Below, one piece after another: positions 5,454 through 64,000 of a DNA stretch of 64,000 bases. Source of the stretch: a virus (taxonomy: Duplodnaviria > Caudoviricetes); IMG/VR virus record IMGVR_UViG_3300020434_000055; one strand, written 5' to 3'. The first letter of the stretch is position 1; the number at the start of each line of letters is the position of its first letter. The translations under genes were made by a program, and so were the position numbers. The notes beneath the pieces were generated by a model, which was not told the origin of the DNA, ran no database searches, and saw only the letters and a list, made by a program, of their open reading frames with translations.

Positions 5454-5504
5454 TAAATATTAGTATTAACAGGAGTTAGATAAATAGTTTTATAGGAGAA
5501 CACA

Positions 5505-6241: not shown

Positions 6242-7213
6242 ATGACTAAAAATAATCCAATATCTAGACCAAAAGCATTTTTTTTAAATGGAGGAATGGG
6301 CAGAATTATTTGTGCCATCCCTGCCCTTGAAAAATATTATGAAGAATCTGATGATAAAGATTTTATCATAGTAGTAGAAGGAATTCAAAATATTCTAAAT
6401 GGTCATCCAACTTTAGACGCTAGAACATATGATTATTCTCATAAAAATTTATTTCATACTAAACTTGTAAAAATGGATGTAGTAAGTTTAGAACCTTATA
6501 GAGTATGGGAATATTATAATCAAAAATGTAATATAATTCAAGCATTTGATATTTTAATTAATAATAAAGGTGTAAGAGAATTGCCTAAACCTAAAATTAA
6601 TTTGAGTAAAGAAGAATTAATGGCAGGAGAAAAAGCAATAAATGATATTAAAAAACAAATTAAAAAAGACAAAGTAATTATTATTCAACCCTTCGGTCGA
6701 GCAATTCAACAAATAGATAGTAGTTTTGTAGATAAATCTAACCGAAGTATGGAATTTAAAAATTTAAAAAATTTAATAAGAAAATTTCAGGAAAAAGATT
6801 ATGCAGTAGCTATAATGGCAGAATTTGGAATAGAATTTAAAGATGAAAAATATAAAGATGAAGTAGCAATGCCTGAAAAAATTGACTTAAGACAATGGAC
6901 AGCAATTATAAAATATGCTGATCAATTTTTAGGTTGTGACAGTGTAGGACAACATTTGTCTTATATAGTTGATACACCATGTACAGTTGTTATAGGACAA
7001 ACTTATCCTATTAACACATCATACCCTAAAACAAAAAATATTTCTATAATTGATATGGGACAACTAGAACGAGAATATGATCCAATAAGAATAACAGTAG
7101 ATGAAAGAGTTAGTAGACAAGGTGAAAAATTAATGTGGATGAGTAAAGAAATAGAAGATCTTGTTGTAAAAGTAGTATTAGGTGAAGAAACAATAGAGGA
7201 AGAAGATGAATAA
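6242..7213 (+). CDS. GT-B glycosyltransferase, GT9 (heptosyltransferase)-like, paralogue A
   Basis: N-terminal NGGMGRIICAIP, central IIIQPFG, C-terminal ADQFLGCDSVGQHLS...PCTVVIGQT (compare GT9 DSGxxHLA...PTVxLFGxT). Confidence 0.6.
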   Translation: MTKNNPISRPKAFFLNGGMGRIICAIPALEKYYEESDDKDFIIVVEGIQNILNGHPTLDARTYDYSHKNLFHTKLVKMDVVSLEPYRVWEYYNQKCNIIQAFDILINNKGVRELPKPKINLSKEELMAGEKAINDIKKQIKKDKVIIIQPFGRAIQQIDSSFVDKSNRSMEFKNLKNLIRKFQEKDYAVAIMAEFGIEFKDEKYKDEVAMPEKIDLRQWTAIIKYADQFLGCDSVGQHLSYIVDTPCTVVIGQTYPINTSYPKTKNISIIDMGQLEREYDPIRITVDERVSRQGEKLMWMSKEIEDLVVKVVLGEETIEEEDE

Positions 7214-9014
7214 AAAATCTGGATGGATTGCCGCAATTTCTAGAGGACATAATTCAGGAATATGTCTAATGAAAGATGGAGAAATTATTTTTGCAATTGA
7301 AGAAGAAAGATTATCAAGACACAAATATGATGGTGGTCCTTATATGAGTATGTTGGAAATATTAAAATATACAGACACTTTAGATTATTTAATTATAGCA
7401 CATACCCAACCATTAACTGATCCTTCTACTGGTAGAGTTGATTATACAGGTGATGATGTATATACAGGTTTAGCAAGAAAATTAGGATTGATAGATAGAA
7501 AAGTAGATTTAAAAAAACATCCTCAAGTAATAGATCTCAGTCATATTCATCACAAGTTACACGCCGCCTGTGCTTTTTATAGATCTGGATTTGATGAAGC
7601 GTGTGCGGTTATTTGTGATGGTGCAGGAACTTTTATGCCTATTAATAGTTCTCTTGTAGGTGATATGACAATGTTTGAAGTTGAATCTATATTTGATTGT
7701 TCTTATCCTAATAATATATTTACTGTATGGAAACATTATGGTACTGGTACAACATCTCCAGGTGCTCTTATGACACAACAATCAGACAAAATGGGAGAGC
7801 CTGGAAGAACTCATCAAGTATTATTGTCAGACAAGGCAGGAATTACTAAAGTTTATGAAGCAGTTACTCAATACTGTGGATTTTCTGCCATTGAAGCAGG
7901 AAAAACAATGGGATTATTTCCTTATGGAAAACCTAATGATAGAATCCCTAAACTTTTTCAACAAGAAGGAAGATTTTCACAATCTAATAGAAATGTAATT
8001 CTTCCTACATATCCAAATGCGGCTATAGTAAATGAACAAATGTATGAATATCTTAATAATGTACCTGAAAGTTGTTCTGATGTTTCTACATTAGATAATA
8101 GGAGAGATTTAGCATATGCTTGTCAAATAGAAACTCAAGCAGAATTATTAAAAGTAATTTACCAGGCTGTAAAAAGAACAGGTAGAAAAAATGTTGTATT
8201 ATCAGGTGGCTATGGATTAAATTGTGTAGCAAATTATTTTTATCTTGAATCTTTAAGAAAAGATGGAATTAATTTATTTGTTGAACCTGTGTCAAATGAC
8301 GCTGGAACAGCCATTGGAGCGGCTCTTTTATTTTATTATGCTTTGTCAGAGGATAAGACAAAAAGACCACTTACTACATTGTGTCAAGGTCCTGAAAGAA
8401 AATATACATTAGAACAAATACAAGAATTAACAAATAAAGAAGGTATTGAATTAGTAGATGCAAACGATAAAGATATAGTCAAATTAATGATAGAAAAAAA
8501 TATTGTTTCTATGTTTCAAGGAAAATCAGAGAGTGGACCTAGAGCATTAGGTAATAGAAGTATTTTATTTGATCCTACATTTAAAGATGGTAAAGATTTT
8601 GTTAATATAGTTAAACGTAGAGAATATTTTAGACCATTTGCAGGGTCTATATTACATGAACACGTACATGATTGGTTTGATTTAAGAGGAATGGAAGAAA
8701 GTCCTTTTATGATGTATGCTGTAAATTGTCAAGAAGGAATAGCAGAAAAAATTCCTAGCATTATACACATAGATGGTACTTGTAGAATACAAACAGTTAA
8801 AGAAGAACAAAATCCATTGTATTATAAATTAATTAAAGAGTTTTATGATCAAACAAAAATACCAATAGTGTTTAATACGTCATTTAATTTGGCAGGAGAA
8901 CCACTTGTAGAAACATTACAAGATGCTATATTAACTCTTGAACACTCTCTTTTAGAATATTTGTATCTTCCAGAATATGGAAAAATGATAAAGGTAAAAA
9001 ATGTCGAGAAATAG
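7206..9014 (+). CDS. O-carbamoyltransferase, NodU/CmcH/TobZ family
   Basis: All expected motifs present: GHNS...EEERLSR, HHKLHAACAF, CDGAG, GKTMGLFPYG, GGYGLNCVAN, NDAGTAIGAA, GPRALGNRSIL, KRREYFRPFA, HIDGTCRIQTV, NTSFNLAGEP. Confidence 0.93.
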   Translation: MNKKSGWIAAISRGHNSGICLMKDGEIIFAIEEERLSRHKYDGGPYMSMLEILKYTDTLDYLIIAHTQPLTDPSTGRVDYTGDDVYTGLARKLGLIDRKVDLKKHPQVIDLSHIHHKLHAACAFYRSGFDEACAVICDGAGTFMPINSSLVGDMTMFEVESIFDCSYPNNIFTVWKHYGTGTTSPGALMTQQSDKMGEPGRTHQVLLSDKAGITKVYEAVTQYCGFSAIEAGKTMGLFPYGKPNDRIPKLFQQEGRFSQSNRNVILPTYPNAAIVNEQMYEYLNNVPESCSDVSTLDNRRDLAYACQIETQAELLKVIYQAVKRTGRKNVVLSGGYGLNCVANYFYLESLRKDGINLFVEPVSNDAGTAIGAALLFYYALSEDKTKRPLTTLCQGPERKYTLEQIQELTNKEGIELVDANDKDIVKLMIEKNIVSMFQGKSESGPRALGNRSILFDPTFKDGKDFVNIVKRREYFRPFAGSILHEHVHDWFDLRGMEESPFMMYAVNCQEGIAEKIPSIIHIDGTCRIQTVKEEQNPLYYKLIKEFYDQTKIPIVFNTSFNLAGEPLVETLQDAILTLEHSLLEYLYLPEYGKMIKVKNVEK

Positions 9015-9951
9015 TGCTATCTTTTTAAATGGTGGAGCAGGAAGAATGCTCAATTCAATACCTGCTTTAGAGAATTATCAAAAAGAAAATCCGGATGATG
9101 ATTTTGTAATAGTTTGTGAAGGTGGTACAGATGTTTTAAAAGGACATCCAACGTTACATTTTAGAACTTATGATGCTTGGCATAAAAACATTTTTCAAGA
9201 AATTTTAAAAGATAGAAATATAATTAGTCCAGAACCTTATAGAATTTGGGAATACTATACTCAAAAATGTAGTCTTGCTCAAGCATATGACATTGCACTT
9301 AATAATAAAGGCATAAGAGAATTATCTAAACCTTCAATAAAATTAAGTAAAGATGAAATTTTATATGCTCGAAAAATGTTAACAGAAATAAAAAATAAGA
9401 CTAAAAAAGACAAAGTAATTATAGTACAACCATTTGGACGAGGTATTAAAAAAGAAGATAAAGATATAGTAGACATTACAGGTAGAAGTATTGAAATAAA
9501 AAATCTTTATAATATTGTAAGAAAATTGGCTAAAAATTACAGTATATTAGTTATGACTGAAGTAGCTTTAGAATTTAATAAGCATATGTCAACACCTATT
9601 GCTATGCCACCTAATGTTCATATTAGAATATGGATGGCTTTAATTAAACAATGTGATCACTTTTTAGGTTGTGATAGTGTAGGACAACATATTGCTTATG
9701 CTTTTGATAAAACTACTACAGCTATAATAGGGTCTACATACCCTATTAACACGTCATATCCTGACGAAGAAACGTTTGACATCATAGATTTGGGCAAAGA
9801 TGACCGAGTATATAGCCCTATAAGAATAACTGTAGATGAATTTTCTGACAGAATAAATGAAGGTATAATGGACATGGATGACCAGCAAGAACAAAGGATA
9901 ATTCAGTCAGTTAATAGAATGATAAAACACGGTAAAAATAACCAATCATAA
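9001..9951 (+). CDS. GT-B glycosyltransferase, GT9-like, paralogue B
   Basis: Aligns by eye with 6242..7213 over its length: NGGAGR, EPYRIWEYY, IIVQPFGR, FLGCDSVGQH, YPINTSYP, YSPIRITVDE. Confidence 0.6.
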   Translation: MSRNSAIFLNGGAGRMLNSIPALENYQKENPDDDFVIVCEGGTDVLKGHPTLHFRTYDAWHKNIFQEILKDRNIISPEPYRIWEYYTQKCSLAQAYDIALNNKGIRELSKPSIKLSKDEILYARKMLTEIKNKTKKDKVIIVQPFGRGIKKEDKDIVDITGRSIEIKNLYNIVRKLAKNYSILVMTEVALEFNKHMSTPIAMPPNVHIRIWMALIKQCDHFLGCDSVGQHIAYAFDKTTTAIIGSTYPINTSYPDEETFDIIDLGKDDRVYSPIRITVDEFSDRINEGIMDMDDQQEQRIIQSVNRMIKHGKNNQS

Positions 9952-20198: not shown

Positions 20199-20591
20199 TT
20201 ATTTCTTTTCAGGATTATTTTTAGAATCTTTTTGACTATCACCTTTAACAATTCTATAATTGTCATCAGAATGATCAGGAGTACTAACTTCAGATACACT
20301 ACCGGAATTACTCATACATACTAATTGATGTGGTTGGCAAGGAGGATTATGCCAAGAGTCGCCTTCTTTTAATTCTTGAGAATATAAAGTTGCATCTTTA
20401 GTATCAATCCAATTTAATTTAAATACACCATTGTTTACAAACCAAGTTTCATCTTTATCTTTATGAAAATGCATACTAAATTTTGCTCCTTTTTTAGTAA
20501 ACACCATAATTTTTCCACAGTACTTTTCATTAGAAGCCCATATTAATTCATAGCCCCAACCCATTTCTCGTTTACCTGTTTTATTGATCAT
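20199..20591 (-). CDS. Cupin-fold sugar isomerase/epimerase-like protein
   Basis: Lies on the minus strand (track label wrong; plus strand 20199 reads TTA). GWGYE.IW...FSMHFHKDKDETW...HNPPCQPHQL cupin metal motifs. Confidence 0.7.
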   Translation of the reverse strand: MINKTGKREMGWGYELIWASNEKYCGKIMVFTKKGAKFSMHFHKDKDETWFVNNGVFKLNWIDTKDATLYSQELKEGDSWHNPPCQPHQLVCMSNSGSVSEVSTPDHSDDNYRIVKGDSQKDSKNNPEKK

Positions 20592-21396
20592 TTACAAATT
20601 CCTTAACGGTTTTCCAATTAATGTCTATATGTTTATTTAATTTTGTCAAATCGGCGCAAGTATAACTTTGATATTGATTGCTTAAATTTAATGGCATAGG
20701 TATAGTTTCTATTTTAGCATTGTATTTTTTAGCGATAATTCCAGCTATTCTTAAAAAACTAGTAGTCTTACCAGTACCTACATTAAAAATACCACTAACA
20801 TCTTTTTTTAACATTTGTTCATGTACAGTACATACATCATCTACACAAACAAAATCTCTAAGATAATTTTCACTATTTTCAAAAATTTTAATTACTTTAT
20901 CTTCTTTAGCTTGTTTTGTAAATTTAGTTATAGGTGATGCTTGATCTTTTTTATGTTCTTCGTCAGAACCATATACATTAAAATATCTAAATCCTTGAAC
21001 AAGGACATCAAATTGGTCCACAGATTCAATAAAACGATCAAACAAATATTTGCTCCATGCATATGGATTCATTGGAGACACAGGACCATCTTCTGTAAAT
21101 GTACTTTGACCTCCATAAACACTAGCAGAACTGGCATATTGAAAATTTGTTCCCATAGTATCACATAATTGTAACAATCTCATACTAAAATCATAATTTT
21201 GTGTTAATATTTTTTTAACATTAGTTTCTGTAGTAGTTGCAATTGCGCCTAAATGTATTACCCAATCATATTTTGATGGATCTGGCACAACATTTTCTAC
21301 ATAAGAATAACCTTTTACAGTATGTCCTTTAGACTCTAAATGTTTAGATAAGTTTTTTCCTATAAATCCATTATGTCCTGTTATTAATATGTTCAT
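20581..21396 (-). CDS. hldD: ADP-L-glycero-D-manno-heptose 6-epimerase
   Basis: Minus strand; likely start MNILITGHNGFIG at 21396 (TAATG overlap). YASSASVYG, PYAWSKYLFD, GFRYFNVYG...HK, RDFVCVDDV, GIFNVGTG..SF and YQSYTCADL match HldD/RfaD. Confidence 0.85.
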   Translation of the reverse strand: MNILITGHNGFIGKNLSKHLESKGHTVKGYSYVENVVPDPSKYDWVIHLGAIATTTETNVKKILTQNYDFSMRLLQLCDTMGTNFQYASSASVYGGQSTFTEDGPVSPMNPYAWSKYLFDRFIESVDQFDVLVQGFRYFNVYGSDEEHKKDQASPITKFTKQAKEDKVIKIFENSENYLRDFVCVDDVCTVHEQMLKKDVSGIFNVGTGKTTSFLRIAGIIAKKYNAKIETIPMPLNLSNQYQSYTCADLTKLNKHIDINWKTVKEFVNDQ

Positions 21397-22001
21397 TAAT
21401 ATCCTGTCTTTTTCTCTCCCCAAGGTCTAGTTTTTTCTGCTACACTTTCGGGGATAGTTAAATGTGCATAGGTACTATCAGGTACCGGTATAAAATTAAT
21501 ATTAATTGCCATTCTACTTTTTACATCTGTACAAGTAGATCCAGAATGCATCATATAACTAGGAAAAATAACCATTGAATTTTCTACACTTGGTATTTTT
21601 GTACCATCTTCAAATTCAGTGTATCCATCATTTGTATTAATATAAAGAATTGCTGTAACACAACAAGGAGTTACTGTATCAACATGATAACCATGAGTAA
21701 CAAGTTTATCTTGTCTAGTAACAAGATTTGCTTTAACTCTAATAAAAGTTATTGGATCTAATAATGCAAAAACAGGAATTAGAGCTTCCCAATTAGATTC
21801 ATTTGTAACAATTCTATTACTTTCTTGAAATACGTGTGTAAATTGAAATTGGTATTTTTCAGTATCTGGTAATATGTGCATATCATCTACTACATTAGAA
21901 TTATAATACCAAGGAAAATTAAGACCCATGATAAGTTCTTGTAACCTTTTAAAGTGCTCAATTGATAATGCGTTTGGTAATTGGATTATTTTATTGTTCA
22001 T
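21396..22001 (-). CDS. 2OG-Fe(II) oxygenase (phage type)
   Basis: HVD...TAILYINTNDGYTEF...ENSMVIFPSYMMHSG...R pattern (HxD...H...R). Confidence 0.8.
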   Translation of the reverse strand: MNNKIIQLPNALSIEHFKRLQELIMGLNFPWYYNSNVVDDMHILPDTEKYQFQFTHVFQESNRIVTNESNWEALIPVFALLDPITFIRVKANLVTRQDKLVTHGYHVDTVTPCCVTAILYINTNDGYTEFEDGTKIPSVENSMVIFPSYMMHSGSTCTDVKSRMAININFIPVPDSTYAHLTIPESVAEKTRPWGEKKTGY

Positions 22002-23232
22002 TTTTAATTTTTTCTATTATGTCACTTGTAGAATGTCCTTCTATTCTTGGAAAAATTCTAACTTCTGCAAGTTCATTTCCTACGGTTGTTTGTACTGTCC
22101 AATCTCCCCCTTTTACTATAATATCTGGCATAACTTCTTTCATAAGTTTGTGTGGATTATCTTCTTCAAAAACTTTAACTTCGTCTACCCACGGTAACAT
22201 CATTAATTGTTTAACTCTTTTATCTTCATTATTAATAGGTCTATCCGGACCTTTTATTTTTTTAACACTATCGTCACTATTAATTCCAACAATTAATTTT
22301 TTACCTAAACTTTTTGCATATTTTAATAATTCTAAATGACCTATATGTAAAATATCAAATACTCCATTAGTAAAAATAACTCCTTTTTGTAAATCATTTA
22401 AAGTAACAGGTACAACACCACGTTGTTCTACGTTTCTAGCTGATGCCGTACACGCCAATTTACAACATTCAAATACATTAATATCTTTGGATATACCATA
22501 AGCTAATACACTTAAAAATGTGTCTCCTGCACCTGTAACATCTGCAACATCTTTTGCTTTTTCTTTTAATAAAGAATATTCACCTGTAGTACATAATACA
22601 TGAGCACCATTACTACCATCAGTAACTATTAACCATGTCCATTGATGTTCTCGCATAAATTTAAGAGCATCAGTAATTGAAAATACACTATTCCATTCGT
22701 TATATTCTTTCATATTTGGTTTAACAATATATGCTCCATCATAGGTATCTGCACTTTGTTTTGGATCAACTATTACATATTTTGTTTTTTTTAATAATTT
22801 AGATATTGTATCTTTTTTAATAACACCTTTATTATAATCACTAACAATTACTATATCATTTTCATTACAATCAACTGTAACTTCATTAGAATAATCTTCT
22901 TCTTTATCTAATCTTAAAACGTGTTTACCACCTTGACCTATTATCCTTGTTTTAGTAGTTGTAATAGAATGATCATAATTTAATTTAGGATGTATTTCTT
23001 GATTTAAAAATAATTTTATTAATTTTTTACCTGGATCATCTTGTCCTATTGCTCCATATAATTCACAAGGTACCTTTAAATTTGCAATATTAACTGCAAC
23101 ATTTCCAGCACCTCCTATACTATATTTTTTATTATTCTCTTTTATAACTAATACAGGTCCTTCAGGTGAAACTCTTTCTGCATTTCCTTCTATCCATATA
23201 TCTAACATAACATCACCAATTATTTTAATCAT
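21991..23232 (-). CDS. hldE: Bifunctional heptose 7-phosphate kinase / heptose 1-phosphate nucleotidyltransferase
   Basis: N-terminal IGDVMLD...RVSPEGPV, GGAGNVA, SDYNKG, VDPK, KPN..E, DVTGAGDT (PfkB kinase); C-terminal TNGVFDILHIGH, VGINSD.SV..KG..RP, KGGDW. Confidence 0.93.
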   Translation of the reverse strand: MIKIIGDVMLDIWIEGNAERVSPEGPVLVIKENNKKYSIGGAGNVAVNIANLKVPCELYGAIGQDDPGKKLIKLFLNQEIHPKLNYDHSITTTKTRIIGQGGKHVLRLDKEEDYSNEVTVDCNENDIVIVSDYNKGVIKKDTISKLLKKTKYVIVDPKQSADTYDGAYIVKPNMKEYNEWNSVFSITDALKFMREHQWTWLIVTDGSNGAHVLCTTGEYSLLKEKAKDVADVTGAGDTFLSVLAYGISKDINVFECCKLACTASARNVEQRGVVPVTLNDLQKGVIFTNGVFDILHIGHLELLKYAKSLGKKLIVGINSDDSVKKIKGPDRPINNEDKRVKQLMMLPWVDEVKVFEEDNPHKLMKEVMPDIIVKGGDWTVQTTVGNELAEVRIFPRIEGHSTSDIIEKIKNEQ

Positions 23233-23660
23233 ACTATAAATTTAACCATTTTAAAAACTGTTTCTAATTTTGTTTGATTGGTTTTATTTTGTAATGTTTT
23301 TCTTAATCCTTGATGCAAAGGTTTAGGCCATCTACCAAAAGCTACCCAAGAATAACCATCATGTTCTTTATTTAATTTAGGTATAAATTCATCTTTTACT
23401 AAACAAAGATATGTATGGTATAAGAAATTTTCATCATTACTAATGAATGTTTCCATAGGAATAGTTTTAACAATTTGTTGATTACCGATTTCTTCTTTAA
23501 TTTCTCTTTTCAATCCTTCCCAAGGATTTTCGGAAGTTGTTGTTCCTCCAACTAACCCCCAAACGTGACTTTGCTTACTTTGTGTCCTATGTAATAACAA
23601 AAATCGCTGAGTATTAAGGGTATAGAAAAGTGCTCCGCAACCAATTATTCTCTGGGTCAT
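23229..23660 (-). CDS. Nudix hydrolase
   Basis: Exact Nudix box GX5EX7REUXEEXG (GGTTTSENPWEGLKREIKEEIG). Confidence 0.88.
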   Translation of the reverse strand: MTQRIIGCGALFYTLNTQRFLLLHRTQSKQSHVWGLVGGTTTSENPWEGLKREIKEEIGNQQIVKTIPMETFISNDENFLYHTYLCLVKDEFIPKLNKEHDGYSWVAFGRWPKPLHQGLRKTLQNKTNQTKLETVFKMVKFIV

Positions 23661-23673
23661 GTAAATAATTATC

Positions 23674-25137
23674 TTAAAGAGTAATAGACCAGGTTCCTTT
23701 ACGATACTCTCCTTCGAAACTTAATATCCATTGTGTGCCATCCCATTTATATTGGATGCCTGTATTAAGGTTTGTAACGTATGTAGGTGTGAATACTGTT
23801 GAATCATCTAAATTATTAGCACTTGCATTAAAAATTACTGTCCAATCTGTTCCATTCCATTCTATAATATCATTAGCTTCTGCTACAAAGTCTGCATTAC
23901 CAGTACCTTTCCATGCATCTGCACCATCAGTATTACTTACATCACCGATAGGTCCTAATAATAAAAGTCTTTGACCTGCTACTTTTGTAGATGTAGGATT
24001 ATATGTTACCGGATCAATTATAAAATCTACTGTACCTCTTGCATCTGCATATCCTTGAATATCAGTATCGGTAGGAATAGTATCTGCGTCCCAGTTTACA
24101 ATTAATTGATTTTCATTTAAACTGTTAATTGCAAATGTTCCACTAATTCTTGTAGAAACATCTAACCTATTAAGATACAATGTGCTTAAACTTGCTTGAT
24201 ATATTCCAGGTAATCTCTCTAGTAATGCATTCCAATTGACATTTCCTACAACACCTCTGTCTACTATTTGAGCTATATTATTCATTACAAGAATATCATA
24301 TTGTATACCTGTAGTTCCTATAACACTATCAACATCTGCTTTAACAACTTTACTAGTGTCAATAGTACCGTCTGCACTTTTTACAATATCTGCTTTAATA
24401 TCTTTGCCATAATCATCTTGATAGGCTTGTAATTCAGGCATAGACTGACTAAGGTCAATGTTACCTGTTTTTTCATTGTATATGCTAGTAATAATTTGAG
24501 TAATAACTCCTAATTTTTTAACTTTAGTAGGAGGACTAATCCAAATAGGTGTTGTAAAACCTAAAGTAGCTATATCTATTTCGCTTTCTGCTCCCACTGG
24601 AATTGTTCTTCCACTAAACTGTACACTTGTTAAATCCACTACACTTAAACTAGTCCAATCAATATAATTGTCTGTAGTTTGGATTTCTAAACTTGGATTG
24701 AATAACATTAAAACTTGTTCTAAAATTTGTAATTTTTGTTCAGTATTTGTAGACCATATATCACAATTTACATTTAACGTATAAGGTGTTGGCATTAATC
24801 TTTCTACAGTATAATTTGATCCTTGAACATTAAGATATTCTTTATTGGAATCATCATAAGCACGTTCTCGTAAATGAATTTTACTAACATAAGTAGCATC
24901 TGCTAATCTGTCTCTAGCCATTTCTAAACCATTAACATAAATTCCCATTCTAGGAGCAGAAGGAATTTTATTTTCTGAATTATCTCTTATGATATGACCA
25001 ACTTGTCTAGAAATATCACCATACATGACAGGTATTTGTTTTAGATTTCCATCACCATCTTTATAGCTAAAGTTACTCATTAGTCTAATAATTTGAGTGA
25101 TATATCGTCTTATCTGTCCGTCGTAAAAAAATTGCAT
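23674..25137 (-). CDS. Tail terminator / sheath stabiliser (T4 gp15-like) with C-terminal extension
   Basis: FYDGQIRRY...IPVMYG...PRM...YTL...DIW...QKLQILEQVLMLFNP, located beside the neck genes. Confidence 0.7.
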   Translation of the reverse strand: MQFFYDGQIRRYITQIIRLMSNFSYKDGDGNLKQIPVMYGDISRQVGHIIRDNSENKIPSAPRMGIYVNGLEMARDRLADATYVSKIHLRERAYDDSNKEYLNVQGSNYTVERLMPTPYTLNVNCDIWSTNTEQKLQILEQVLMLFNPSLEIQTTDNYIDWTSLSVVDLTSVQFSGRTIPVGAESEIDIATLGFTTPIWISPPTKVKKLGVITQIITSIYNEKTGNIDLSQSMPELQAYQDDYGKDIKADIVKSADGTIDTSKVVKADVDSVIGTTGIQYDILVMNNIAQIVDRGVVGNVNWNALLERLPGIYQASLSTLYLNRLDVSTRISGTFAINSLNENQLIVNWDADTIPTDTDIQGYADARGTVDFIIDPVTYNPTSTKVAGQRLLLLGPIGDVSNTDGADAWKGTGNADFVAEANDIIEWNGTDWTVIFNASANNLDDSTVFTPTYVTNLNTGIQYKWDGTQWILSFEGEYRKGTWSITL

Positions 25138-25292
25138 TATTTTTTCTCTATTTTAGATTTTTCATTTGTTTTTTTAGTTGCTGGTTCATAAAAAGTTCTA
25201 ACTTTGCCCATATATTTTCGAGTAACTTTTTTAAGTCCAACGGCTTTTTCTGTGCCTGGTATAGGAATGCCCCATAATTCTCTAATCATCAT
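25137..25292 (-). CDS. Small basic protein (51 aa), not in ORF track
   Basis: MMIRELWGIPIPGTEKAVGLKKVTRKYMGKVRTFYEPATKKTNEKSKIEKK; TAATG overlaps with both neighbours. Confidence 0.65.
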   Translation of the reverse strand: MMIRELWGIPIPGTEKAVGLKKVTRKYMGKVRTFYEPATKKTNEKSKIEKK

Positions 25293-26449
25293 TAATTGTC
25301 TGCCTTAGGTTTAAGTGCTTTAGATAAACTTTGTCTTTCAGTTACAGTTTCTCCACCTATTTGATTAGTTGCTGTATTATTAATAAACGTACCTTTTTGT
25401 GTAGCTCTTGTGTCTGTATTAGTTAATGTCATTCTTACACCATCTTCCATTTTAACCCATCTAGTCTTATCAAATCTAAATAATCTATTTGGTAAAAAGT
25501 CTGTTCTTAAGAAATAATCACCTTTAATTGCACTTGTTGGAAAAGTAATTCCATGACCAAATACTTCACCATTAGGTGCAATTCCATCACCTACTAAATA
25601 ACCTTGATATCCTGATCTATCAGGTGTTTGATTAACTCTGTCTGCTAATTCGTTTTGTGTACTAGCATCTAATTCATTTGTATCAGTAGTAACAAGCTCA
25701 GTATTACCTTTAGCATCTGTTTGTAATGTGTATAAATGACTAGTTTCATATCCACTTTTTGTAGTATCAGCTTCTGCTTGAGCAACAACAGCCTCATTAA
25801 TTTGCATTTCTTTTTCATATGTGGATAGTACATCTCTAAGTGTTTGACTTGATCCTTCTTGTGCAGGTAAATCAAGTATGCCTTTAAATTCTTGGCTGTC
25901 TACTATTTGTTTTAATTTTACTCTATATAAATGAGGATACCATGATACACTAAATCCTTCTGCCGCCCTGCTTATATCTTCTACTACATAGTATCTTTTT
26001 AATGCTAAATTAAAATCATTAAGGGCGTATTCGTCTTTTAAATGAGGTAATTCAAATACATCTCCCGGCATTATTTTTCGTCCTAACGTTTCTACAGAAG
26101 TTGATATAGGAATAGTCATAAACAATGTATCATTTTGTAAAAACAAACCAAACTGGCTCATATCAAAATCTATATCTGCTACATTGTATATTCCTCTTAA
26201 TGTATAAACACTTGAATCGTATTTTCTATCACGATTTTCAAGAAATAACATATCTTGAATGTTAGTTTCTTTTACAGCATTATATCTAGGTTGTGTAGCT
26301 GTAGCTTCTTCTTCTTCAGGATTCCTTGGACCTAGGTATTTGTGTACAAATACATCAGTGCCCCCTACAGTAAACATCTCATTAACTGTTCTATCTAAGA
26401 AGGCGTAGTCCTGTCCTTTTTCCGGTTTATATAGACTTATTCTTGGCAT
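25292..26449 (-). CDS. Neck / head-closure protein (T4 gp14-like)
   Basis: Divergent from gp13; ENRDRKYD...FGLFLQND...GDVFELPH pattern. Confidence 0.65.
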   Translation of the reverse strand: MPRISLYKPEKGQDYAFLDRTVNEMFTVGGTDVFVHKYLGPRNPEEEEATATQPRYNAVKETNIQDMLFLENRDRKYDSSVYTLRGIYNVADIDFDMSQFGLFLQNDTLFMTIPISTSVETLGRKIMPGDVFELPHLKDEYALNDFNLALKRYYVVEDISRAAEGFSVSWYPHLYRVKLKQIVDSQEFKGILDLPAQEGSSQTLRDVLSTYEKEMQINEAVVAQAEADTTKSGYETSHLYTLQTDAKGNTELVTTDTNELDASTQNELADRVNQTPDRSGYQGYLVGDGIAPNGEVFGHGITFPTSAIKGDYFLRTDFLPNRLFRFDKTRWVKMEDGVRMTLTNTDTRATQKGTFINNTATNQIGGETVTERQSLSKALKPKADN

Positions 26450-26455
26450 ACGTTA

Positions 26456-26461
26456 TATTTA
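26456..26461 (-). promoter_or_regulatory. T4-like late promoter core TAAATA, 6 nt before gp14-like ATG
   Basis: Minus strand reads AATAAATA-TAACGT-ATG; no SD. Confidence 0.6.
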
Positions 26462-26480
26462 TTCTTAGGCAGGACGTTGA

Positions 26481-26486
26481 TAAATA
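26481..26486 (+). promoter_or_regulatory. T4-like late promoter core TAAATA (gp13)
   Basis: GATAAATA in the short divergent intergenic region. Confidence 0.5.
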
Positions 26487-26503
26487 TCTATAGAGAACAT
26501 ATT

Positions 26504-27306: not shown

Positions 27307-27900
27307 ATGATTATAGGTATTTGCGGTCTCATGGGTAGTGGAAAAGACACCATAGCCGATCATCTTATTCAAGAGCATCAATTTAAAAAAATATCATTCG
27401 CAGATAAATTAAAAGAATCTGTTGCTACAATGTTTGATTGGGATAGAACTATGCTTGACGGTCAAACAGATGAAAGTAGACAATGGCGAGAAAAACCAGA
27501 TGAATATTGGTCTAAAGAAGTAGGCAAATCTATTACTCCAAGATTTGTATTACAAAAATTTGGTACAGAATGTATGCGTGATAATTTTTATGACGGTATA
27601 TGGGTTAGTATGACTAAAAAGAAAATTTTAGATAATCCTAATACTAACTGGGTTGTTCCTGATGTTAGATTTGAAAATGAAGTTAAAATGATTAAAAGTA
27701 TCAATGGTCAAGTATGGTGGGTAAAAAGAGGTGAATTACCTACATGGTTTAGAGTTTATCAAGACATAGGTGTAGAACCTAAAGATGTACATCCTAGTGA
27801 ATGGTCTTGGGCAAAGGCTAATTTTGATAAAGTTTTAGATAATAATTCTACTATGGATAATCTTAAAAATCAGGTACAAGATCACCTTGTTTCCACTTAA
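27307..27900 (+). CDS. Deoxynucleoside monophosphate kinase (T4 gp1-like)
   Basis: MIIGICGLMGSGKDT P-loop, SFADKLK, TPRFVLQKFGTECMR, DVRFENE, HPSE. Confidence 0.88.
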   Translation: MIIGICGLMGSGKDTIADHLIQEHQFKKISFADKLKESVATMFDWDRTMLDGQTDESRQWREKPDEYWSKEVGKSITPRFVLQKFGTECMRDNFYDGIWVSMTKKKILDNPNTNWVVPDVRFENEVKMIKSINGQVWWVKRGELPTWFRVYQDIGVEPKDVHPSEWSWAKANFDKVLDNNSTMDNLKNQVQDHLVST

Positions 27901-28204
27901 ATCCTTCTTTATGTAATGTTCTTTGACAGTTGGCGCATACTGTTTTAAGATTTTTAAAGTTACAATTATTCATATGTCCATCAATATGAAACACATTAAA
28001 TTGTATTGGGTACTCACTTTTATACCCACACTTGTCACATTTACTTTTCATACGATAACCAGCATTATGCCATTTAGGCATACCATGATTGGCTCCACCA
28101 TATCTAATACAAGCTTCGCATTTACTTCTATAAAAGATTATATCCTTCTTATGATAGTTAATTGCACATGGATACTTGTTACAAACTTTACATAAAGGTC
28201 TCAT
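27863..28204 (-). CDS. Zn-finger / HNH-like small protein
   Basis: Three CxxC pairs, then CDKCG...FHIDGHMNNCNFKNLKTVCANC (HNH-type beta-beta-alpha-metal signature). Confidence 0.7.
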   Translation of the reverse strand: MRPLCKVCNKYPCAINYHKKDIIFYRSKCEACIRYGGANHGMPKWHNAGYRMKSKCDKCGYKSEYPIQFNVFHIDGHMNNCNFKNLKTVCANCQRTLHKEGFKWKQGDLVPDF

Positions 28205-32224: not shown

Positions 32225-32253
32225 TAACAAAATTTAAAATTCCACTAATAGAG

Positions 32254-32276
32254 GAGGCGCTAAGGCGCCTTTTTTA
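32254..32276 (+). terminator. Rho-independent terminator after tail tube
   Basis: AGGCGC-TAAG-GCGCCT stem-loop followed by a T-run. Confidence 0.8.
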
Positions 32277-32301
32277 TTCTCTACCCTGTTTTTCTACTCG
32301 A

Positions 32302-32307
32302 TAAATA
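32302..32307 (+). promoter_or_regulatory. Late promoter core TAAATA, 6 nt before ATG 32314
   Basis: GATAAATA-CTGTAT-ATG, immediately after the terminator. Confidence 0.65.
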
Positions 32308-33850: not shown

Positions 33851-34288
33851 ATGAAACGTTATATTAATGGTAGATTCAATCCAAAGAATCCTAGCAAATA
33901 CATAGGTAATAGATCACCTTTATATAGATCAAGTTGGGAATTTGCTTTCATGAGATTTTGTGATGAAAGTCCTAGTATTAGCAAATGGGCCAATGAAGCA
34001 ATTAAGATACCTTACAAACATCCTTTCACAGGAAAATTTTCAATATATGTTCCTGATTTTTTTATAGCATATACAGATAAAGCAGGTAAAAGTCATGCAG
34101 AAGTTGTAGAAATTAAACCAGAAAATCAAACTAGAAAAGAAAAATTAGGTGAAAGCAAAGCTAACAAAATACAATATGTTATTAATCAAGCTAAATGGAA
34201 TTCCGCTATGGCTTGGTGTAAAAATAAAGGTTTTAAATTTAGAGTAGTAAATGAAAAAGACCTTTTCCATACTGGAAGACGCGGTTAA
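33851..34288 (+). CDS. Head completion nuclease (T4 gp4-like, PD-(D/E)xK)
   Basis: G.F.PKNP.KY.G...YRSSWE..FM..CD....W..E...IPY...Y.PDF...EIKP..Q. Confidence 0.85.
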   Translation: MKRYINGRFNPKNPSKYIGNRSPLYRSSWEFAFMRFCDESPSISKWANEAIKIPYKHPFTGKFSIYVPDFFIAYTDKAGKSHAEVVEIKPENQTRKEKLGESKANKIQYVINQAKWNSAMAWCKNKGFKFRVVNEKDLFHTGRRG

Positions 34289-44066: not shown

Positions 44067-44923
44067 ATCAAAATTGGACTATGGATGTTAATTTTAGACA
44101 CGACCGTTTAAAGAAAAATCATCCAGAAGTGTTTAAAATGAAACGATTAATTTTTCAAGTTGCTGTTGGTACACCAAATAAATTATATGAACTTTGTATT
44201 AAAAGTGTAGCGGAATATTGTAAAAAATATCAAATAGAACATATAGTATTAAGAGAACCTAAATTAAGAATTCGACCAGACATTAATAGAACAGGAAGAA
44301 GTAAACAAGCCGTATCAAGACTAGGATACCTACCTATATATGAAAAAGAAAATGCATTTGAATACTTACGCACTCATGATCAAGTATGCATTGTTGATAG
44401 TGACATATACATTAAAGCAATAGCACCAAACATATTTGATTTATTACCTTTTGATTGTTCATTTGGGGGAGTTATTGAAAGACAAATGCCTCTTACAAAA
44501 AAATATTTTAACAAAATAAGAAAATATTCTAGAAATGCATTTAAAAATTTAACAGATGTTAATTGGAAATGGAATACAAATGGAGCAGAATTTTTTAATA
44601 TGGGTTTAATGTTAATGAATAAAAACATATTATGGTATCTTAAAAATGAAACGCCAAAACAATTTTTATCACGTCCGGAGTTTAAAGATTTTGTAGATGG
44701 TGTGGGTTTTTATAAATGGTCTACGGATCAAATGTTATTAAATTGGTGGGTAAAAACAGAAAAAATGACTGTTAAACATTTAGATTGGAAATGGAATGCT
44801 TTATATACAGCCGTTGAAGACAACAAATTAAAAGAAGCATACTTTGTACATTTCTTTTTAAAAGATTTATTACCTAACAAAGGTGAAGAAATAGAAAGTT
44901 TATTAAAAAAAATAAATGGTTAA
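44063..44923 (+). CDS. Glycosyltransferase family 8-like
   Basis: IVDSDIYI (DxD), FFNMGLML, STDQMLLN, WNAL, FVHF. Confidence 0.7.
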   Translation: MNQNWTMDVNFRHDRLKKNHPEVFKMKRLIFQVAVGTPNKLYELCIKSVAEYCKKYQIEHIVLREPKLRIRPDINRTGRSKQAVSRLGYLPIYEKENAFEYLRTHDQVCIVDSDIYIKAIAPNIFDLLPFDCSFGGVIERQMPLTKKYFNKIRKYSRNAFKNLTDVNWKWNTNGAEFFNMGLMLMNKNILWYLKNETPKQFLSRPEFKDFVDGVGFYKWSTDQMLLNWWVKTEKMTVKHLDWKWNALYTAVEDNKLKEAYFVHFFLKDLLPNKGEEIESLLKKING

Positions 44924-45380
44924 AACAAACGACTTATTATTGGGCTCCGATCATAGAGGAGTAATACTTAAAGAAGAAATATTAAGTTATGTTTCTCCTG
45001 AAAATGATGACGAGAATCCTACAAAATTTAATCTAGCAATAATACAAAATTTAAAACCACACGATACTAAAAAATCTGTCGACTATCCAGATATAGTTAA
45101 AAGGTTTGCATTTTATTTTAATGGTTATTCGCATGGTATATTAATATGTGGCTCAGGTTTTGGTGTATGTATGGCGGCTAATAGATTTAAACATATTAGA
45201 GCAGTAGTTTGTAGAGATGTTTATGATGTTGAGGCGGCACGTCAACACAATAATATGAATGTTATGTGTTTAGGCGCAGATTATACTGATCCTGATACAG
45301 CAAAATATATGGTAGAAGCATTTTTCGAAACAAAATTTGAAGGGGGAAGACATAAACGTAGAGTAAACAAATTATCATGA
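44916..45380 (+). CDS. rpiB: Ribose-5-phosphate isomerase B (RpiB/LacAB family)
   Basis: GSDHRG, DYPD, GILICGSGFGVCMAANRF..IRA..C, QHNNMNVMCLG, FEGGRH.RRV. Confidence 0.9.
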   Translation: MVKTNDLLLGSDHRGVILKEEILSYVSPENDDENPTKFNLAIIQNLKPHDTKKSVDYPDIVKRFAFYFNGYSHGILICGSGFGVCMAANRFKHIRAVVCRDVYDVEAARQHNNMNVMCLGADYTDPDTAKYMVEAFFETKFEGGRHKRRVNKLS

Positions 45381-46156
45381 TACACATAGTAAACAGAATA
45401 ATGAGTACTAGAATTCCTAATCTACGTTATACAATGCCAGGGTTTGGTGATGCAATACATACAATTCTTTTAGCTTACTTGTACGGTAAAGCACATAACG
45501 ATCAAGTCACAATGCATTTAGACAAAGACAAATATAATAAAGATAAACCAGGAACCCTTGCTCAATGTATTTCTTTGTTTCCAAAAAATAAAATTTTTGT
45601 AGAAGGACACGACAAGTGGTTTAAAGGAGATAAAGAATTTGTAGATTATATTACACAACTAAAAGGAAAATGTATTGGACATTATTATAAAGATTTTCCT
45701 AATAGTCATAGAGTACAACAAGTAGTAGAACCTTTCTTTTGGGCTGACGATTATCTTAATGGCGGGGATCCATGTTTACCAGCAGATGATATGAGTCATG
45801 AAGTAAAAATACCTAAAAAATTTATAACTGTACAATGGGACGCAGGTTCTAAAAACAGAATGCTATCTAGTCAACAAATTTCTGAAATACATGATTCTTT
45901 TAAAAAGAAAGGTTATGAAGTTCTTGTAGTTGGTGGACAAGCTCAAGGAAAATTAAGAAGATCATTAAAACATATAGGGTATGCAATGGCAAATGCAGAC
46001 TTTCATGTAGGTGTAGATAGTGGCTATATGCATTTAGCTCAACTATATTTTAAACCAGAAAACATCTACATATATACTAATAAAAAAGGAAAATGGGAAC
46101 ATCATTTATTAAGATTTCATAAAAACGGTTCCAAAGTTAACGAAAAATTTGTATGA
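45377..46156 (+). CDS. GT9 (heptosyltransferase)-like glycosyltransferase with canonical motifs
   Basis: PGFGDAIH near the N-terminus; ADFHVGVDSGYMHLAQ near the C-terminus. Confidence 0.65.
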   Translation: MIHIVNRIMSTRIPNLRYTMPGFGDAIHTILLAYLYGKAHNDQVTMHLDKDKYNKDKPGTLAQCISLFPKNKIFVEGHDKWFKGDKEFVDYITQLKGKCIGHYYKDFPNSHRVQQVVEPFFWADDYLNGGDPCLPADDMSHEVKIPKKFITVQWDAGSKNRMLSSQQISEIHDSFKKKGYEVLVVGGQAQGKLRRSLKHIGYAMANADFHVGVDSGYMHLAQLYFKPENIYIYTNKKGKWEHHLLRFHKNGSKVNEKFV

Positions 46157-49163: not shown

Positions 49164-49886
49164 ATGAGAATATTATTAACAGGTCATAAAGGTTTTATAG
49201 GTTCAGCTCTTTATAAAAGATTAGAAGAAAAAAATCATAAAATTTTTGGTATAGATACTAAAGCAAATTCAAACATTTTTACGGCAGAACTTCCGGAAGT
49301 TGATTTAGTTATTCATTTAGCCGCCATAGGTGGGGTAAGAGAATCATTGGCAGATCCTAAAAAATATTGGTCGGTTAATGTTGAAGGAACTAAAAGAATT
49401 ATAGAACATTATCAAAATACAAGAGTGTTATATGCTGGATCAAGTTCACAATATGAACCACATTTAAATCCTTATGCCGCTAGTAAAAATGCAATTGAAT
49501 ATATTCCTCATCCTAATTCTGTTGTAATGAGATTTCATACAGTTTATTCTGATACACCAAGATTTAATATGTTTTTTGACAAGTTATTAAATGGAAAATT
49601 AGAATATGTAACTAATCATAAAAGGGATTTCCTTCATATTGAAGACTTATGTGATGCAATACTAACTATTATTGACAATCCTTTTTTTAAAGGTCCCGTA
49701 GATATAGGCACAGGACAAAGTGTTAGGATACGAGATATAGCACCTAATTTACCAGTAAAAGAAATTACTTTAGGAGAAAGACTAGAAACATTAGCTGACA
49801 TTAGTAAAATGAAACAATTAGGATGGTCACCTAAATGGACAGTACAAAAATTTTTAACACAACAGGGATTTGATGTAAAATTATGA
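49164..49886 (+). CDS. NAD-dependent epimerase/dehydratase (extended SDR)
   Basis: TGHKGFIGS, VIHLAA, NVEGT, SSS.Y, PYAASK, RDFLHIEDL, DIGTG. Confidence 0.88.
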   Translation: MRILLTGHKGFIGSALYKRLEEKNHKIFGIDTKANSNIFTAELPEVDLVIHLAAIGGVRESLADPKKYWSVNVEGTKRIIEHYQNTRVLYAGSSSQYEPHLNPYAASKNAIEYIPHPNSVVMRFHTVYSDTPRFNMFFDKLLNGKLEYVTNHKRDFLHIEDLCDAILTIIDNPFFKGPVDIGTGQSVRIRDIAPNLPVKEITLGERLETLADISKMKQLGWSPKWTVQKFLTQQGFDVKL

Positions 49887-50233
49887 AAGCAGGAAAAATT
49901 TGGGGACAAACAGAATTAATACACGCAAATGGTGTATTAGAATTTCATAGAATAGATTTTAAAGCAGGTGGAGTTTGTTCTAAACACAAACACAAATATA
50001 AATGGAATGGCTTTTATGTTGTTTCAGGCAAAATGATTGTAAGAGTTTGGAAAGATGATCAAGGACTAGTAGATGAAACATTATTAAATGCTGGTGACTG
50101 GACAAGAATTAAACCAGGAGAATATCATCAATTTGAAGGAGTAGAAGATGGTATTGCTTTTGAATTATACTGGGCACAATTTGATCATGATGATATAGAA
50201 AGAGAATATTCCGGGTCTAAAAAAAATGATTAA
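49883..50233 (+). CDS. Cupin-fold protein
   Basis: KIWG...CSKHKHKYKWNGFYV...IKPGEYHQF. Confidence 0.7.
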   Translation: MKAGKIWGQTELIHANGVLEFHRIDFKAGGVCSKHKHKYKWNGFYVVSGKMIVRVWKDDQGLVDETLLNAGDWTRIKPGEYHQFEGVEDGIAFELYWAQFDHDDIEREYSGSKKND

Positions 50234-63122: not shown

Positions 63123-64000
63123 ATGATAATTTGGGGAATAACAGGTAACAGTCACGATGCCAGTCTAGCAGTAATGAAGTGGAGTCCTAATGGTTTAACA
63201 GATCATTATACACTTAAACTTCTTTGGGCAGGACTCTCTAGAGATTTTAGTGGTAAACCTGGAGATCCTACTTTAAGCAATAGGATGTTAGCTCATGTAA
63301 GATCAAATGCATTATGGGCCCACCCAGCAAAAATTATTTGGTATGAAAAACCATTTTTAAAAAGTTTACGACAACTATGGGCAGGTCAAGGATTCACATT
63401 TACAGAAAATAATATTAAAGAATTTTTACGAACAAAAGGAATATTTCAACCTGTTGAATATGCAAAACATCATCATAGTCATGCGGCATACGGATATTTT
63501 ACTTCACCTTTTTCTGAAAAAAATGCCGCAATAGTTGTACTAGACAGTATAGGAGAGTTTCAAACATTTACTATTTGGCATGGCAAAGGGGATCATTTAA
63601 AACAAGTATACTCACAAAGTTATCCGCATAGTGTTGGATTATTTTATAGTGCTATGACACAACGAATAGGATTTAAAGCTAACGCAGAAGAACATAAAAC
63701 AGAACGACTTGCTAAAAAAGGCAACTGGAGAGTTCACTATAGAAAATTTATGGAAGAAATAGTTTTATCAAAATTGCCTTTTAAATTAAGAGAAAATTTA
63801 CATAGAGGAGCTAATTGGTGGAGACCTGAATTAAATTCAGAAGAAGATTTAGCCAACATAGCGGCAACTACTCAAAAGATTTTTGAACAAACATTAGTTT
63901 GTATTAGTAGCTGGTGTCAAATGCATATTAAGGCGAGCAATATAGTTTTTGTAGGTGGGTGTGCATTAAACAAAAGTGCAATAAAACATTTGGAACACAT
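63123..64000 (+). CDS. Second NodU-family carbamoyltransferase, 3'-truncated by window end
   Basis: Hand translation from ATG 63123 (AGGA SD) is open to the window end: IWGITGNSHDASLAV, HHHSHAAYGYFTSPF, VLDSIGE, YPHSVGLFYS..TQRIGF..N.EEHK, NIAA.TQ..FE, GGCALN. Confidence 0.85.
   Translation, partial: MIIWGITGNSHDASLAVMKWSPNGLTDHYTLKLLWAGLSRDFSGKPGDPTLSNRMLAHVRSNALWAHPAKIIWYEKPFLKSLRQLWAGQGFTFTENNIKEFLRTKGIFQPVEYAKHHHSHAAYGYFTSPFSEKNAAIVVLDSIGEFQTFTIWHGKGDHLKQVYSQSYPHSVGLFYSAMTQRIGFKANAEEHKTERLAKKGNWRVHYRKFMEEIVLSKLPFKLRENLHRGANWWRPELNSEEDLANIAATTQKIFEQTLVCISSWCQMHIKASNIVFVGGCALNKSAIKHLEH

Follow-up and report, generated by a model that had tools for sequence, protein, structure and literature searches.

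Heptose-type sugar genes at the far end of a predicted late neck operon in a marine jumbo phage family

Phage heptose genes have been known since 2005, and the lipopolysaccharide (LPS) clusters of phage P-SSM2 were described in that year (Sullivan et al. 2005, PMC1079782). In pelagimyophages and cyanomyophages, a host recognition cluster of fibre genes, glycosyltransferases and rfaE (= hldE) ends at gp14; the authors who described it did not analyse transcription and lean towards a role in modifying the host O-chain (Zaragoza-Solas et al. 2020, PMC7029224). Viral heptose nucleotidyltransferases, some of them fused to a kinase, were shown to be active in 2024, and the phosphatase was reported to be absent from viruses (Tang et al. 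2024, Science, as related in the commentary PMC11461863). The commentary does not cover genomic context, promoter class or timing. Here we describe a block of eight minus-strand open reading frames (ORFs), in series from 26449 down to 20199, in a 64,000-nucleotide stretch of Caudoviricetes DNA (IMG/VR record IMGVR_UViG_3300020434_000055). We refer to the whole stretch as the window. It most likely comes from an uncultured marine jumbo myophage of a large family.

The block joins phage neck genes to genes for an HldE-like enzyme, an HldD-like enzyme and a cupin. Our preferred reading, to which we give a probability of about 0.6, is that the minus strand from 26463 to 20199 is one late transcription unit that makes nucleoside diphosphate (NDP)-heptose during assembly for the decoration of virions. 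Its first half, which encodes a 385-aa virion protein, a homologue of gp15 and a Nudix hydrolase, would be an old neck module; PA5oct-like phages share all three genes and Atu_ph07 the first two. The second half would be a nucleotide-heptose cassette (HldE-like, HldD-like and metal cupin, with a 2-oxoglutarate (2OG) oxygenase added in the clade of the window) that became fixed at the far end of the operon. A gp55-type late promoter, AATAAATA, lying 6 nt before the first ATG, would start the unit. RNA polymerase should then read into the sugar genes, since there is no terminator and almost no intergenic space. An ATAATTA box in the one 13-nt gap adds a possible second late start. The product would feed GT9-like transferases, whose genes also follow late boxes and are either interspersed with the fibre genes or part of a glycosyltransferase island.

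The locus resembles the host recognition cluster in that its heptose genes also lie at the boundary between fibre and neck genes. Fibre-like genes and a GT9/carbamoyltransferase cassette fill positions 1-20198 and converge on the neck operon, and accessory genes vary by clade. However, the heptose genes of the window form a fixed HldE > HldD > cupin core at the 3' end of a neck operon in the opposite orientation, and the neck genes are related to those of PA5oct and Atu_ph07, not to those of Tevenvirinae-type phages. The cassettes of P-SSM2 and P-TIM68 contain homologous genes (protein identities of 31% for the kinase, 41% for the nucleotidyltransferase, 40% for the epimerase, 37% for the cupin and 46% for the carbamoyltransferase). 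In P-SSM2, the cassette is located between tail-fibre genes and downstream of a TATAAATA box, and includes a 2OG oxygenase by annotation. In these two phages, in contrast, separate genes encode the kinase and the nucleotidyltransferase, the cassette is detached from the neck operon, and there is a 112-114-aa 'phosphoheptose isomerase' without a homologue in the window. Heptose genes beside gp14 in marine T4-like phages have already been published. What is new is the fixed attachment of an HldE-HldD-cupin core to a late operon of neck and Nudix genes, in a separate family of jumbo phages related to PA5oct, together with the promoter evidence, the variable tailoring slots and the systematic absence of GmhA. 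The family is an unusually clean case, in which sugar genes are fused to a structural late operon whose interior is purged of the promoter motif.

A neck module with a sugar cassette at its far end

A pattern scan of IMG/VR returned at least 472 stretches encoding an HldE relative. Homologues of the cupin number 3862, the top ones being 63-79% identical and in the same gene context, and the exact cupin of the window also occurs on a 355,620-bp contig. On about 90 distinct marine contigs the order is fixed: a divergent gp13-like gene, then virion protein > gp15 > Nudix > HldE > HldD > cupin, then a convergent fibre gene. The position of the 2511-aa fibre gene of the window is thus kept in its relatives. 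A fixed core with variable tailoring genes slotted into it is present in a family whose sugar genes occur in hundreds of ocean phage contigs.

The slots themselves vary between clades (contigs L027-L031, which are from ENA/NCBI, as well as L021-L026 and L017:11248-14476). Some clades carry two tryptophan-halogenase-like FAD enzymes between Nudix and HldE. In others there are unknown proteins of 104 and 233 aa, or of 211 and 113 aa, the latter two with a DoxX-like membrane protein.

The gp15-like protein scores 85.3 bits against a cut-off of 25 bits for PF16724. Its nearest cultured relatives, at about 32% identity, are Agrobacterium phage Atu_ph07, Sinorhizobium phage Phosso and the Pseudomonas PA5oct group. 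The divergent neighbour is gp13-like (phrog_211, E-value 5.6e-33), with a weak match to T4 gp13 in the PDB (E-value 0.007). The 385-aa protein had been called gp14 in a first-pass annotation, made by a model from the sequence without database searches. This name turned out to be a positional label only, given beside gp13-like and gp15-like genes. The PHROG match identifies a virion structural protein, but we found no Pfam match, no PDB match by sequence or profile and no detectable link to T4 gp14. Its AlphaFold model, built from 26 sequences, has a mean predicted local distance difference test (pLDDT) score of 42 and was too poor for a fold search. The 51-aa ORF that follows has no family match in Pfam, PHROG or NCBIfam profile scans. 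The Nudix protein scores 53.8 bits for PF00293 (cut-off 21.1 bits), its Nudix box (G-GTTTS-E-NPWEGLK-REIKEEIGN) fits GX5EX7REUXEEXGU, and its best PDB matches are generic MutT/NudI proteins.

Comparison with cultured phages suggests a history for the block. PA5oct-like phages (Arenbergviridae) have virion protein > gp15-like > Nudix in the same order, with identities of 35%, 33% and 40%; the last value is for the Nudix that follows gp15 in phage Ettore. There, however, heptose genes are absent after the Nudix gene, which is followed by one more small gene and then convergent genes. Atu_ph07 shares the first two neck genes and the divergent gp13-like neighbour, but an endolysin gene separates its virion protein homologue from gp15. 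Because PA5oct-like phages have the neck-plus-Nudix operon without the heptose cassette, the operon is the older part, and it gained the cassette at its 3' end. For the homologous genes of PA5oct, the published transcriptome (PMC7318152) gives no timing.

Transcription signals of the block

The eight-gene layout proposed in the first-pass annotation agrees with the ORF coordinates. Successive genes overlap by 1, 1, 4, 11, 1 and 11 nt, and the gap at 23673-23661 is the sole intergenic space. The TAAATA motif said to head the block is there as well (26461-26456, minus strand), as part of AATAAATA, and ATAAATA stands at the operon head in 68 of 69 relatives' sequences, with differing flanks. The first-pass annotation had missed two more minus-strand TAAATA motifs, which lie inside the block (20639-20634 and 23374-23369). 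We rejected both as promoters: they read TTAAATA, which is off consensus, and no start is nearby.

ATAAATA is about three times rarer in the window than expected by chance (18 copies; shuffles that preserve dinucleotides give 55 ± 6). Of these copies, 15 are at most 40 nt upstream of a start on the same strand. None of its 21 single-base variants shows a start association in the window. The genes behind it encode the sheath, two tube-like proteins, the small and large terminase, virion proteins, a fibre-like protein and the gp13-like adaptor, and two further copies are the entry points of the glycosyltransferase island. The genes for deoxynucleoside monophosphate (dNMP) kinase and DNA primase are instead preceded by near-consensus sigma70 boxes exactly 6 nt before the ATG. 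A search with T4 gp55 detected homologues in the three largest relatives' records (E-values 2-4e-6). We conclude from these indirect lines (depletion, start association, the structural genes behind the box, the gp55 homologues and conservation) that (A/G)ATAAATA probably serves as the late promoter of this phage family.

The strongest argument for a single unit comes from the interior of the block. Among 89 distinct clusters, only four contain an internal ATAAATA, all from one lineage, while about 318 copies would be expected from base composition in the 516 kb of coding strand. As the box has been purged from the interior, the block appears to be meant to be entered from its head.

The predicted promoter is similar to that of T4 late units: an A/T-rich box, one base shorter than that of T4, stands ahead of structural genes, a gp55 homologue occurs in relatives, and multi-gene late units run through tightly packed genes. 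It differs in consensus, (A/G)ATAAATA here and TATAAATA in T4, and the exact T4 octamer is absent from the window. It also differs in its position: as the ATG often follows after just 5-6 nt, the mRNAs would be nearly leaderless.

The 54-nt divergent region between the block and the gp13-like gene (26450-26503) contains two late boxes, one on the minus strand at 26462-26456 and one on the plus strand at 26480-26486, and this back-to-back arrangement is kept in relatives as distant as L017. An HNH-endonuclease-like ORF of 113 aa (27863-28204, minus strand), located between the dNMP kinase and sheath genes and conserved in relatives, is preceded by a GTAAATA box of its own, 6 nt from the ATG.

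Two scans found no minus-strand terminator within the block, in agreement with the first-pass annotation. As a positive control, the second scan recovered a textbook terminator elsewhere in the window, after the tail tube gene (about 32244-32280, plus strand), so this phage does use terminators between some late genes. That terminator has a 7-bp G+C-rich stem, a 4-nt loop and a T-run, and the next late box (32301-32307) follows immediately. At the convergent junction 20198/20199 there is no hairpin or terminator. A plus-strand hairpin with a T-run at 22237-22262, antisense within hldE, coincides with conserved KGPDRP codons, is lost in divergent relatives and is probably due to chance.

We considered an internal early or middle promoter, without a sigma70 consensus, that would drive hldE independently and place heptose synthesis before assembly. 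The middle-type promoters of this phage family lack a known consensus to search with, and two sigma70-like sites scoring 10/12 are present on the coding strand inside hldE (22859-22831 and 22358-22329). However, the next start lies 829 nt from the first of these sites and 327 nt from the second. No sigma70-type promoter was found before the internal starts, and sigma70-like sites in the block are no commoner than in shuffles. The convincing sigma70 boxes of this phage score 11/12 and lie exactly 6 nt before an ATG, and none of that kind occurs here. In addition, a 4-nt overlap joins the hldE ATG to the Nudix stop, and all downstream junctions overlap as well. We therefore regard an independent early start for hldE as very unlikely. 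An antisense sigma70-like promoter (TTGACT-17-TATAAT, 11/12) lies on the plus strand at 20232-20260, within the 3' end of the cupin gene, and 24 of 42 relatives have it too. As the conserved cupin peptide NYR..GDSQ and ordinary codon usage account for the site, we take it for a probable by-product.

The gap before the Nudix gene contains a different candidate. The arrangement ATAATTA-N5-ATG is one mismatch from the late box and, with its flanking base, reads GATAATTA (23673-23666). Of 31 distinct contexts from relatives, 24 have ATAATTA 5 nt upstream of the Nudix ATG, and five more have ATAA(G/C)TA or GTAAATA in its place. The element is non-coding, so coding constraint is not the reason for its conservation, and the gap contains no Shine-Dalgarno sequence. 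It may be a weaker internal late promoter or a coupling signal. If it is a working variant of the late promoter, the Nudix and heptose genes would have their own leaderless-type transcript, with a minor contribution of read-through from the neck genes. The geometry is that of the ATAAATA-N5/6-ATG boxes of the window, which favours this nested late unit. On the other hand, ATAATTA is not generally linked to starts (2 of the 24 copies in the window), and the base by which it departs from the late box never varies among the 18 window copies of that box. The gap could also be conserved for translational coupling, or for re-initiation of translation past the gp15 stop. We consider such a nested unit possible, at well below even odds. 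Timing would be late either way, and the sugar genes remain late-class and coupled to Nudix in both cases because the hldE ATG overlaps the Nudix stop. The proposal of one promoter for the whole block thus holds as regards the late box at its head, but the conserved gap element makes two late starts conceivable.

The sugar cassette and its missing steps

The HldE-like protein combines a PF00294 kinase domain (residues 4-273, E-value 2e-29) and a PF01467 nucleotidyltransferase domain (residues 287-391, E-value 8e-21) in one chain. The motifs TGAGD (kinase) and HIGH (nucleotidyltransferase) are invariant across four divergent family members. The HldD-like protein, whose start is ATG 21396 rather than the upstream TTG 21423, has intact GxxGxxG (GHNGFIG) and YxxxK (YAWSK) motifs and matches PF01370 (E-value 2e-35). 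It is about 40 aa shorter than E. coli HldD and 40% identical to the P-SSM2 and P-TIM68 epimerases. For both proteins, heptose models are the best matches, by at least 50 orders of magnitude in E-value over other kinase or epimerase models; the next-best unrelated model for the HldD-like protein is GalE (8e-21). The 2OG oxygenase match is weak and the gene is absent from most relatives.

The cassette resembles the bacterial pathway to adenosine diphosphate (ADP)-L-glycero-beta-D-manno-heptose in the bifunctional architecture of HldE and in an HldD-like short-chain dehydrogenase/reductase (SDR) with intact catalytic motifs. It differs in the accompanying conserved cupin and Nudix genes, in that GmhA was not found and in that a GmhB-like gene is present only in some relatives. 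The C-terminal motif of the HldE-like protein, RIEGHSTS, has Ser for the last Thr of STT and Arg at position -5. Relatives have Thr, Lys, Ile or Met at this position and never Phe or Leu, whereas the ADP-specific type has Phe or Leu. According to PMC11461863, Arg at -5 of (F/L)XXGXSTT leads to synthesis of cytidine diphosphate (CDP)- and uridine diphosphate (UDP)-heptose, and the HldE of the window shares this Arg with the viral enzymes of Tang et al. We therefore speak of NDP-heptose as the probable product of the HldE-HldD cassette.

The first-pass annotation had noted the absence of GmhA and GmhB from the window and suggested that the cupin and Nudix proteins might replace them. The absence was confirmed by a Pfam scan of 77 window ORFs (among them all those of at least 90 aa except the 2511-aa fibre gene), which detected no SIS or HAD domain. 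The Nudix is an unlikely substitute for GmhB, since it belongs to the ancestral neck module and is found there in phages that lack heptose genes. To our knowledge, phosphomonoesters are not typical Nudix chemistry. A GmhB-like HAD gene occurs in two of ten relatives' records (L017 and G008; TIGR00213, E-value about 1e-26, 87-89 bits against a cut-off of 149.6), and in the L017 clade it is the last gene of the operon. This differs from the absence of the phosphatase from viruses reported by Tang et al. (as related in PMC11461863).

For the GmhA step, the cupin is a candidate with some support. Since no SIS gene was found in the window, in ten partial relatives' records or in the two complete cyanophage genomes, the cupin is the one conserved enzyme without an assigned step. 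Its model (pLDDT 89) has as its top 17 Swiss-Prot fold matches ManC/AlgA/XanB residues ~346-497 (template modelling (TM) scores 0.72-0.77, root-mean-square deviation mostly 1.3-2.3), a region that corresponds to the type II mannose-6-phosphate isomerase domain. His41, His43, Glu48 and His88 align with the QxH..E..H motif of E. coli CpsB, and hhalign pairs the cupin with CpsB residues 367-442 (E-value 9.5e-5, probability only 59%). The conversion of sedoheptulose-7-P to manno-heptose-7-P would be the seven-carbon analogue of the mannose-6-phosphate isomerase reaction. The cupin thus looks like a mannose-6-phosphate isomerase, with evidence that is not exclusive: the PDB fold matches spread over quercetinase, oxalate decarboxylase, lyxose isomerase, KdgF and CapF, and the cupin has no match to PF01050 (type II phosphomannose isomerase, PMI) at an E-value of 0.01 or below. 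The suggestion that it replaces GmhA is consistent with the invariant core, the PMI-like fold and the missing SIS gene. Our literature search found no cupin-type sedoheptulose-7-P isomerase.

We put forward, as a tentative proposal with low odds, that HldE, HldD and the PMI-like cupin form a self-contained, GmhA-free route to NDP-heptose that operates only late, with the cupin as the isomerase for sedoheptulose-7-P. The phosphatase would come from the host, a promiscuous enzyme or the HAD gene of some clades, and the product would be used to heptosylate fibre or other virion proteins via the GT9-like transferases. Such a route may operate in hosts whose envelope has no heptose.

Alternatively, the cassette could make an activated sugar other than glycero-manno-heptose, with the cupin as an epimerase partner of the SDR in the manner of CapF or WbuC. 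HldE and HldD do score below their equivalog cut-offs. The cupin resembles the cupin domain of CapF (TM 0.73-0.75) and weakly matches WbuC (E-value 2e-4), its gene overlaps hldD by 11 nt, and a second SDR > cupin pair lies at 49164-50233. This alternative appears unlikely given the margin by which heptose models outscore the other kinase and epimerase models, the GmhB-like phosphatase attached in some relatives, and the His/His/Glu/His site that the cupin shares with the type II PMI motif.

Two other isomerase candidates were set aside. An RpiB/LacAB-family isomerase (44916-45380; PF02502, E-value 9e-41) is an accessory gene of this genome, and is not the general missing isomerase as it is absent from five relatives that keep the core. 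The end of this gene overlaps the start of a weakly GT9-like gene (45377-46156) in the glycosyltransferase island. The name 'phosphoheptose isomerase' seems mistaken for the proteins of 112-114 aa that carry it in P-SSM2 (gp311, L020:9113-9457) and P-TIM68 (gp195, L019:10269-10607). Neither SIS nor any other Pfam family matches them; their best match is phrog_1238, a polynucleotide-kinase/phosphatase (PNK/HAD-like) PHROG matches more weakly, and they may be small HAD-type phosphatases.

Sugar consumers and the target of the sugar

Three weakly GT9-like proteins are encoded in the window: two flank a carbamoyltransferase among the fibre genes and one belongs to the glycosyltransferase island. 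All three, and the carbamoyltransferase (7206-9014; 46% identical to P-SSM2 gp308), are downstream of late boxes. These cassettes and their late boxes fit the decoration of virion proteins, and we infer that a virion fibre is a more probable target than the host envelope. Sugars on virions have a precedent in mycobacteriophages, whose capsid and tail proteins are glycosylated (Freeman et al. 2023, cited in PMC12619734), and E. coli aah provides protein O-heptosylation with ADP-heptose as the donor (cited in PMC11461863). The phage of the window differs from both in that its transferases are only weakly GT9-like and a glycan on its virions is a prediction.

The NDP-heptose and the GT9-like enzymes could instead remodel the host envelope late in infection, for example to block adsorption of progeny or competitors to infected cells and debris. 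Envelope remodelling is the published reading both for the P-SSM2 LPS clusters (PMC1079782) and for the gp14-adjoining cluster that includes rfaE (PMC7029224), and GT9 enzymes classically build the LPS inner core. Against an envelope target, the sugar genes we examined all follow late boxes and lie within or next to fibre and neck genes, superinfection exclusion usually acts early, and aah sets a precedent for transfer of heptose from ADP-heptose to protein. We consider an envelope target a live alternative, less probable than the virion.

Several further points weigh against the preferred reading of a single late unit that makes NDP-heptose for virions. The sugar genes could be transcribed mainly from the conserved ATAATTA ahead of Nudix. 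Contigs from four marine RNA libraries cover the neck and heptose genes, but they are short (150-330 nt), of depth 2-8 and unstranded; they also cover the flanking plus-strand genes, and DNA carry-over is possible. One exact contig of 206 nt spans the hldD/cupin overlap. None of the contigs reveals strand, ends, timing or a single transcript. The HldE-like protein is below the NCBIfam equivalog cut-offs (NF008454, 318 against 521 bits; TIGR02198, 223 against 345; TIGR02199, 150 against 181.5), as is the HldD-like protein for TIGR02197 (237.6 against 274.6 bits), which leaves the substrate of both uncertain. An SIS-type GmhA was found in none of ten relatives' partial records, one of them about 75% complete, nor in the complete genomes of the cyanophages P-SSM2 and P-TIM68. 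TIGR00213 (GmhB) has no match in the window or in these two genomes. With no GmhA found and GmhB in two of ten relatives, the known heptose pathway is incomplete unless the host or the cupin fills the gaps. Finally, the GT9-like matches to PF01075 (19-21 bits) are below the 22-bit cut-off, and the published reading of such genes is the host envelope one given above.

The late, assembly-stage control of heptose genes that the first-pass annotation had proposed is nevertheless consistent with the late box at the head, the purged interior, the lack of terminators and internal sigma70 sites, the tight coupling of the genes and the gp55 homologues of relatives. The RNA contigs are too short to show co-transcription or timing, and from the sequence we predict both. 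Two questions become testable with this family: whether marine virions are heptosylated, and whether a cupin can stand in for an SIS-type isomerase at the start of a heptose pathway. If virion glycosylation proves true, it would bear on host range, on the reading of marine phage 'LPS genes' and on the annotation of auxiliary genes.

Table 1 Features of the block and of its surroundings in the window
Feature	Position	Strand	Remarks
Predicted late promoter box AATAAATA	26456..26463	-	6 nt ahead of ATG 26449
Virion structural protein, 385 aa, gp14 position	25292..26449	-	phrog_11591, E-value 1.2e-89
51-aa ORF	25137..25292	-	1-nt overlap with each neighbour; confined to the clade of the window
gp15-like tail sheath stabiliser / tail completion protein, 487 aa	23674..25137	-	PF16724, E-value 4.7e-24; phrog_11196, 5e-78
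Intergenic gap	23661..23673	-	ATAATTA at 23672-23666, 5 nt ahead of the Nudix ATG
Nudix hydrolase, 143 aa	23229..23660	-	PF00293, E-value 2.5e-14; Nudix box intact
Fused HldE-like heptose-7-P kinase / heptose-1-P nucleotidyltransferase, 413 aa	21991..23232	-	PfkB + CTP_transf_like; NF008454, E-value 7e-95
2OG-Fe(II) oxygenase-like, 201 aa	21396..22001	-	Accessory in the clade of the window; PF13640, E-value 1e-4 (below cut-off); phrog_274, 9e-45
HldD-like SDR epimerase, 271 aa	20581..21396	-	From ATG 21396; TIGR02197, E-value 1.8e-70
Metal-site cupin, 130 aa	20199..20591	-	Final operon gene, invariant core; PF07883, E-value 7e-8; phrog_7851, 1e-32
Late box (G)ATAAATA of the divergent gp13-like gene, back to back	26480..26486	+	Gene ATG 26504
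Convergent fibre-like gene, 2511 aa	12663..20198	+	Stop codon adjoins that of the cupin gene; closes the fibre/host-recognition region
GT9-like / carbamoyltransferase / GT9-like cassette among fibre genes	6242..9951	+	Late box upstream at 5480-5486; candidate sugar consumers

Two further genes of the window were recorded. The N-terminal domain of a second carbamoyltransferase (63123-63998; PF02543, E-value 6e-26) adjoins the primase gene, at a long distance from the fibre-linked carbamoyltransferase gene (7206-9014), and runs off the end of the window. A protein with a TnsA-like endonuclease domain (33851-34288; PF08722, E-value 6e-19) is encoded among the tail and terminase genes.

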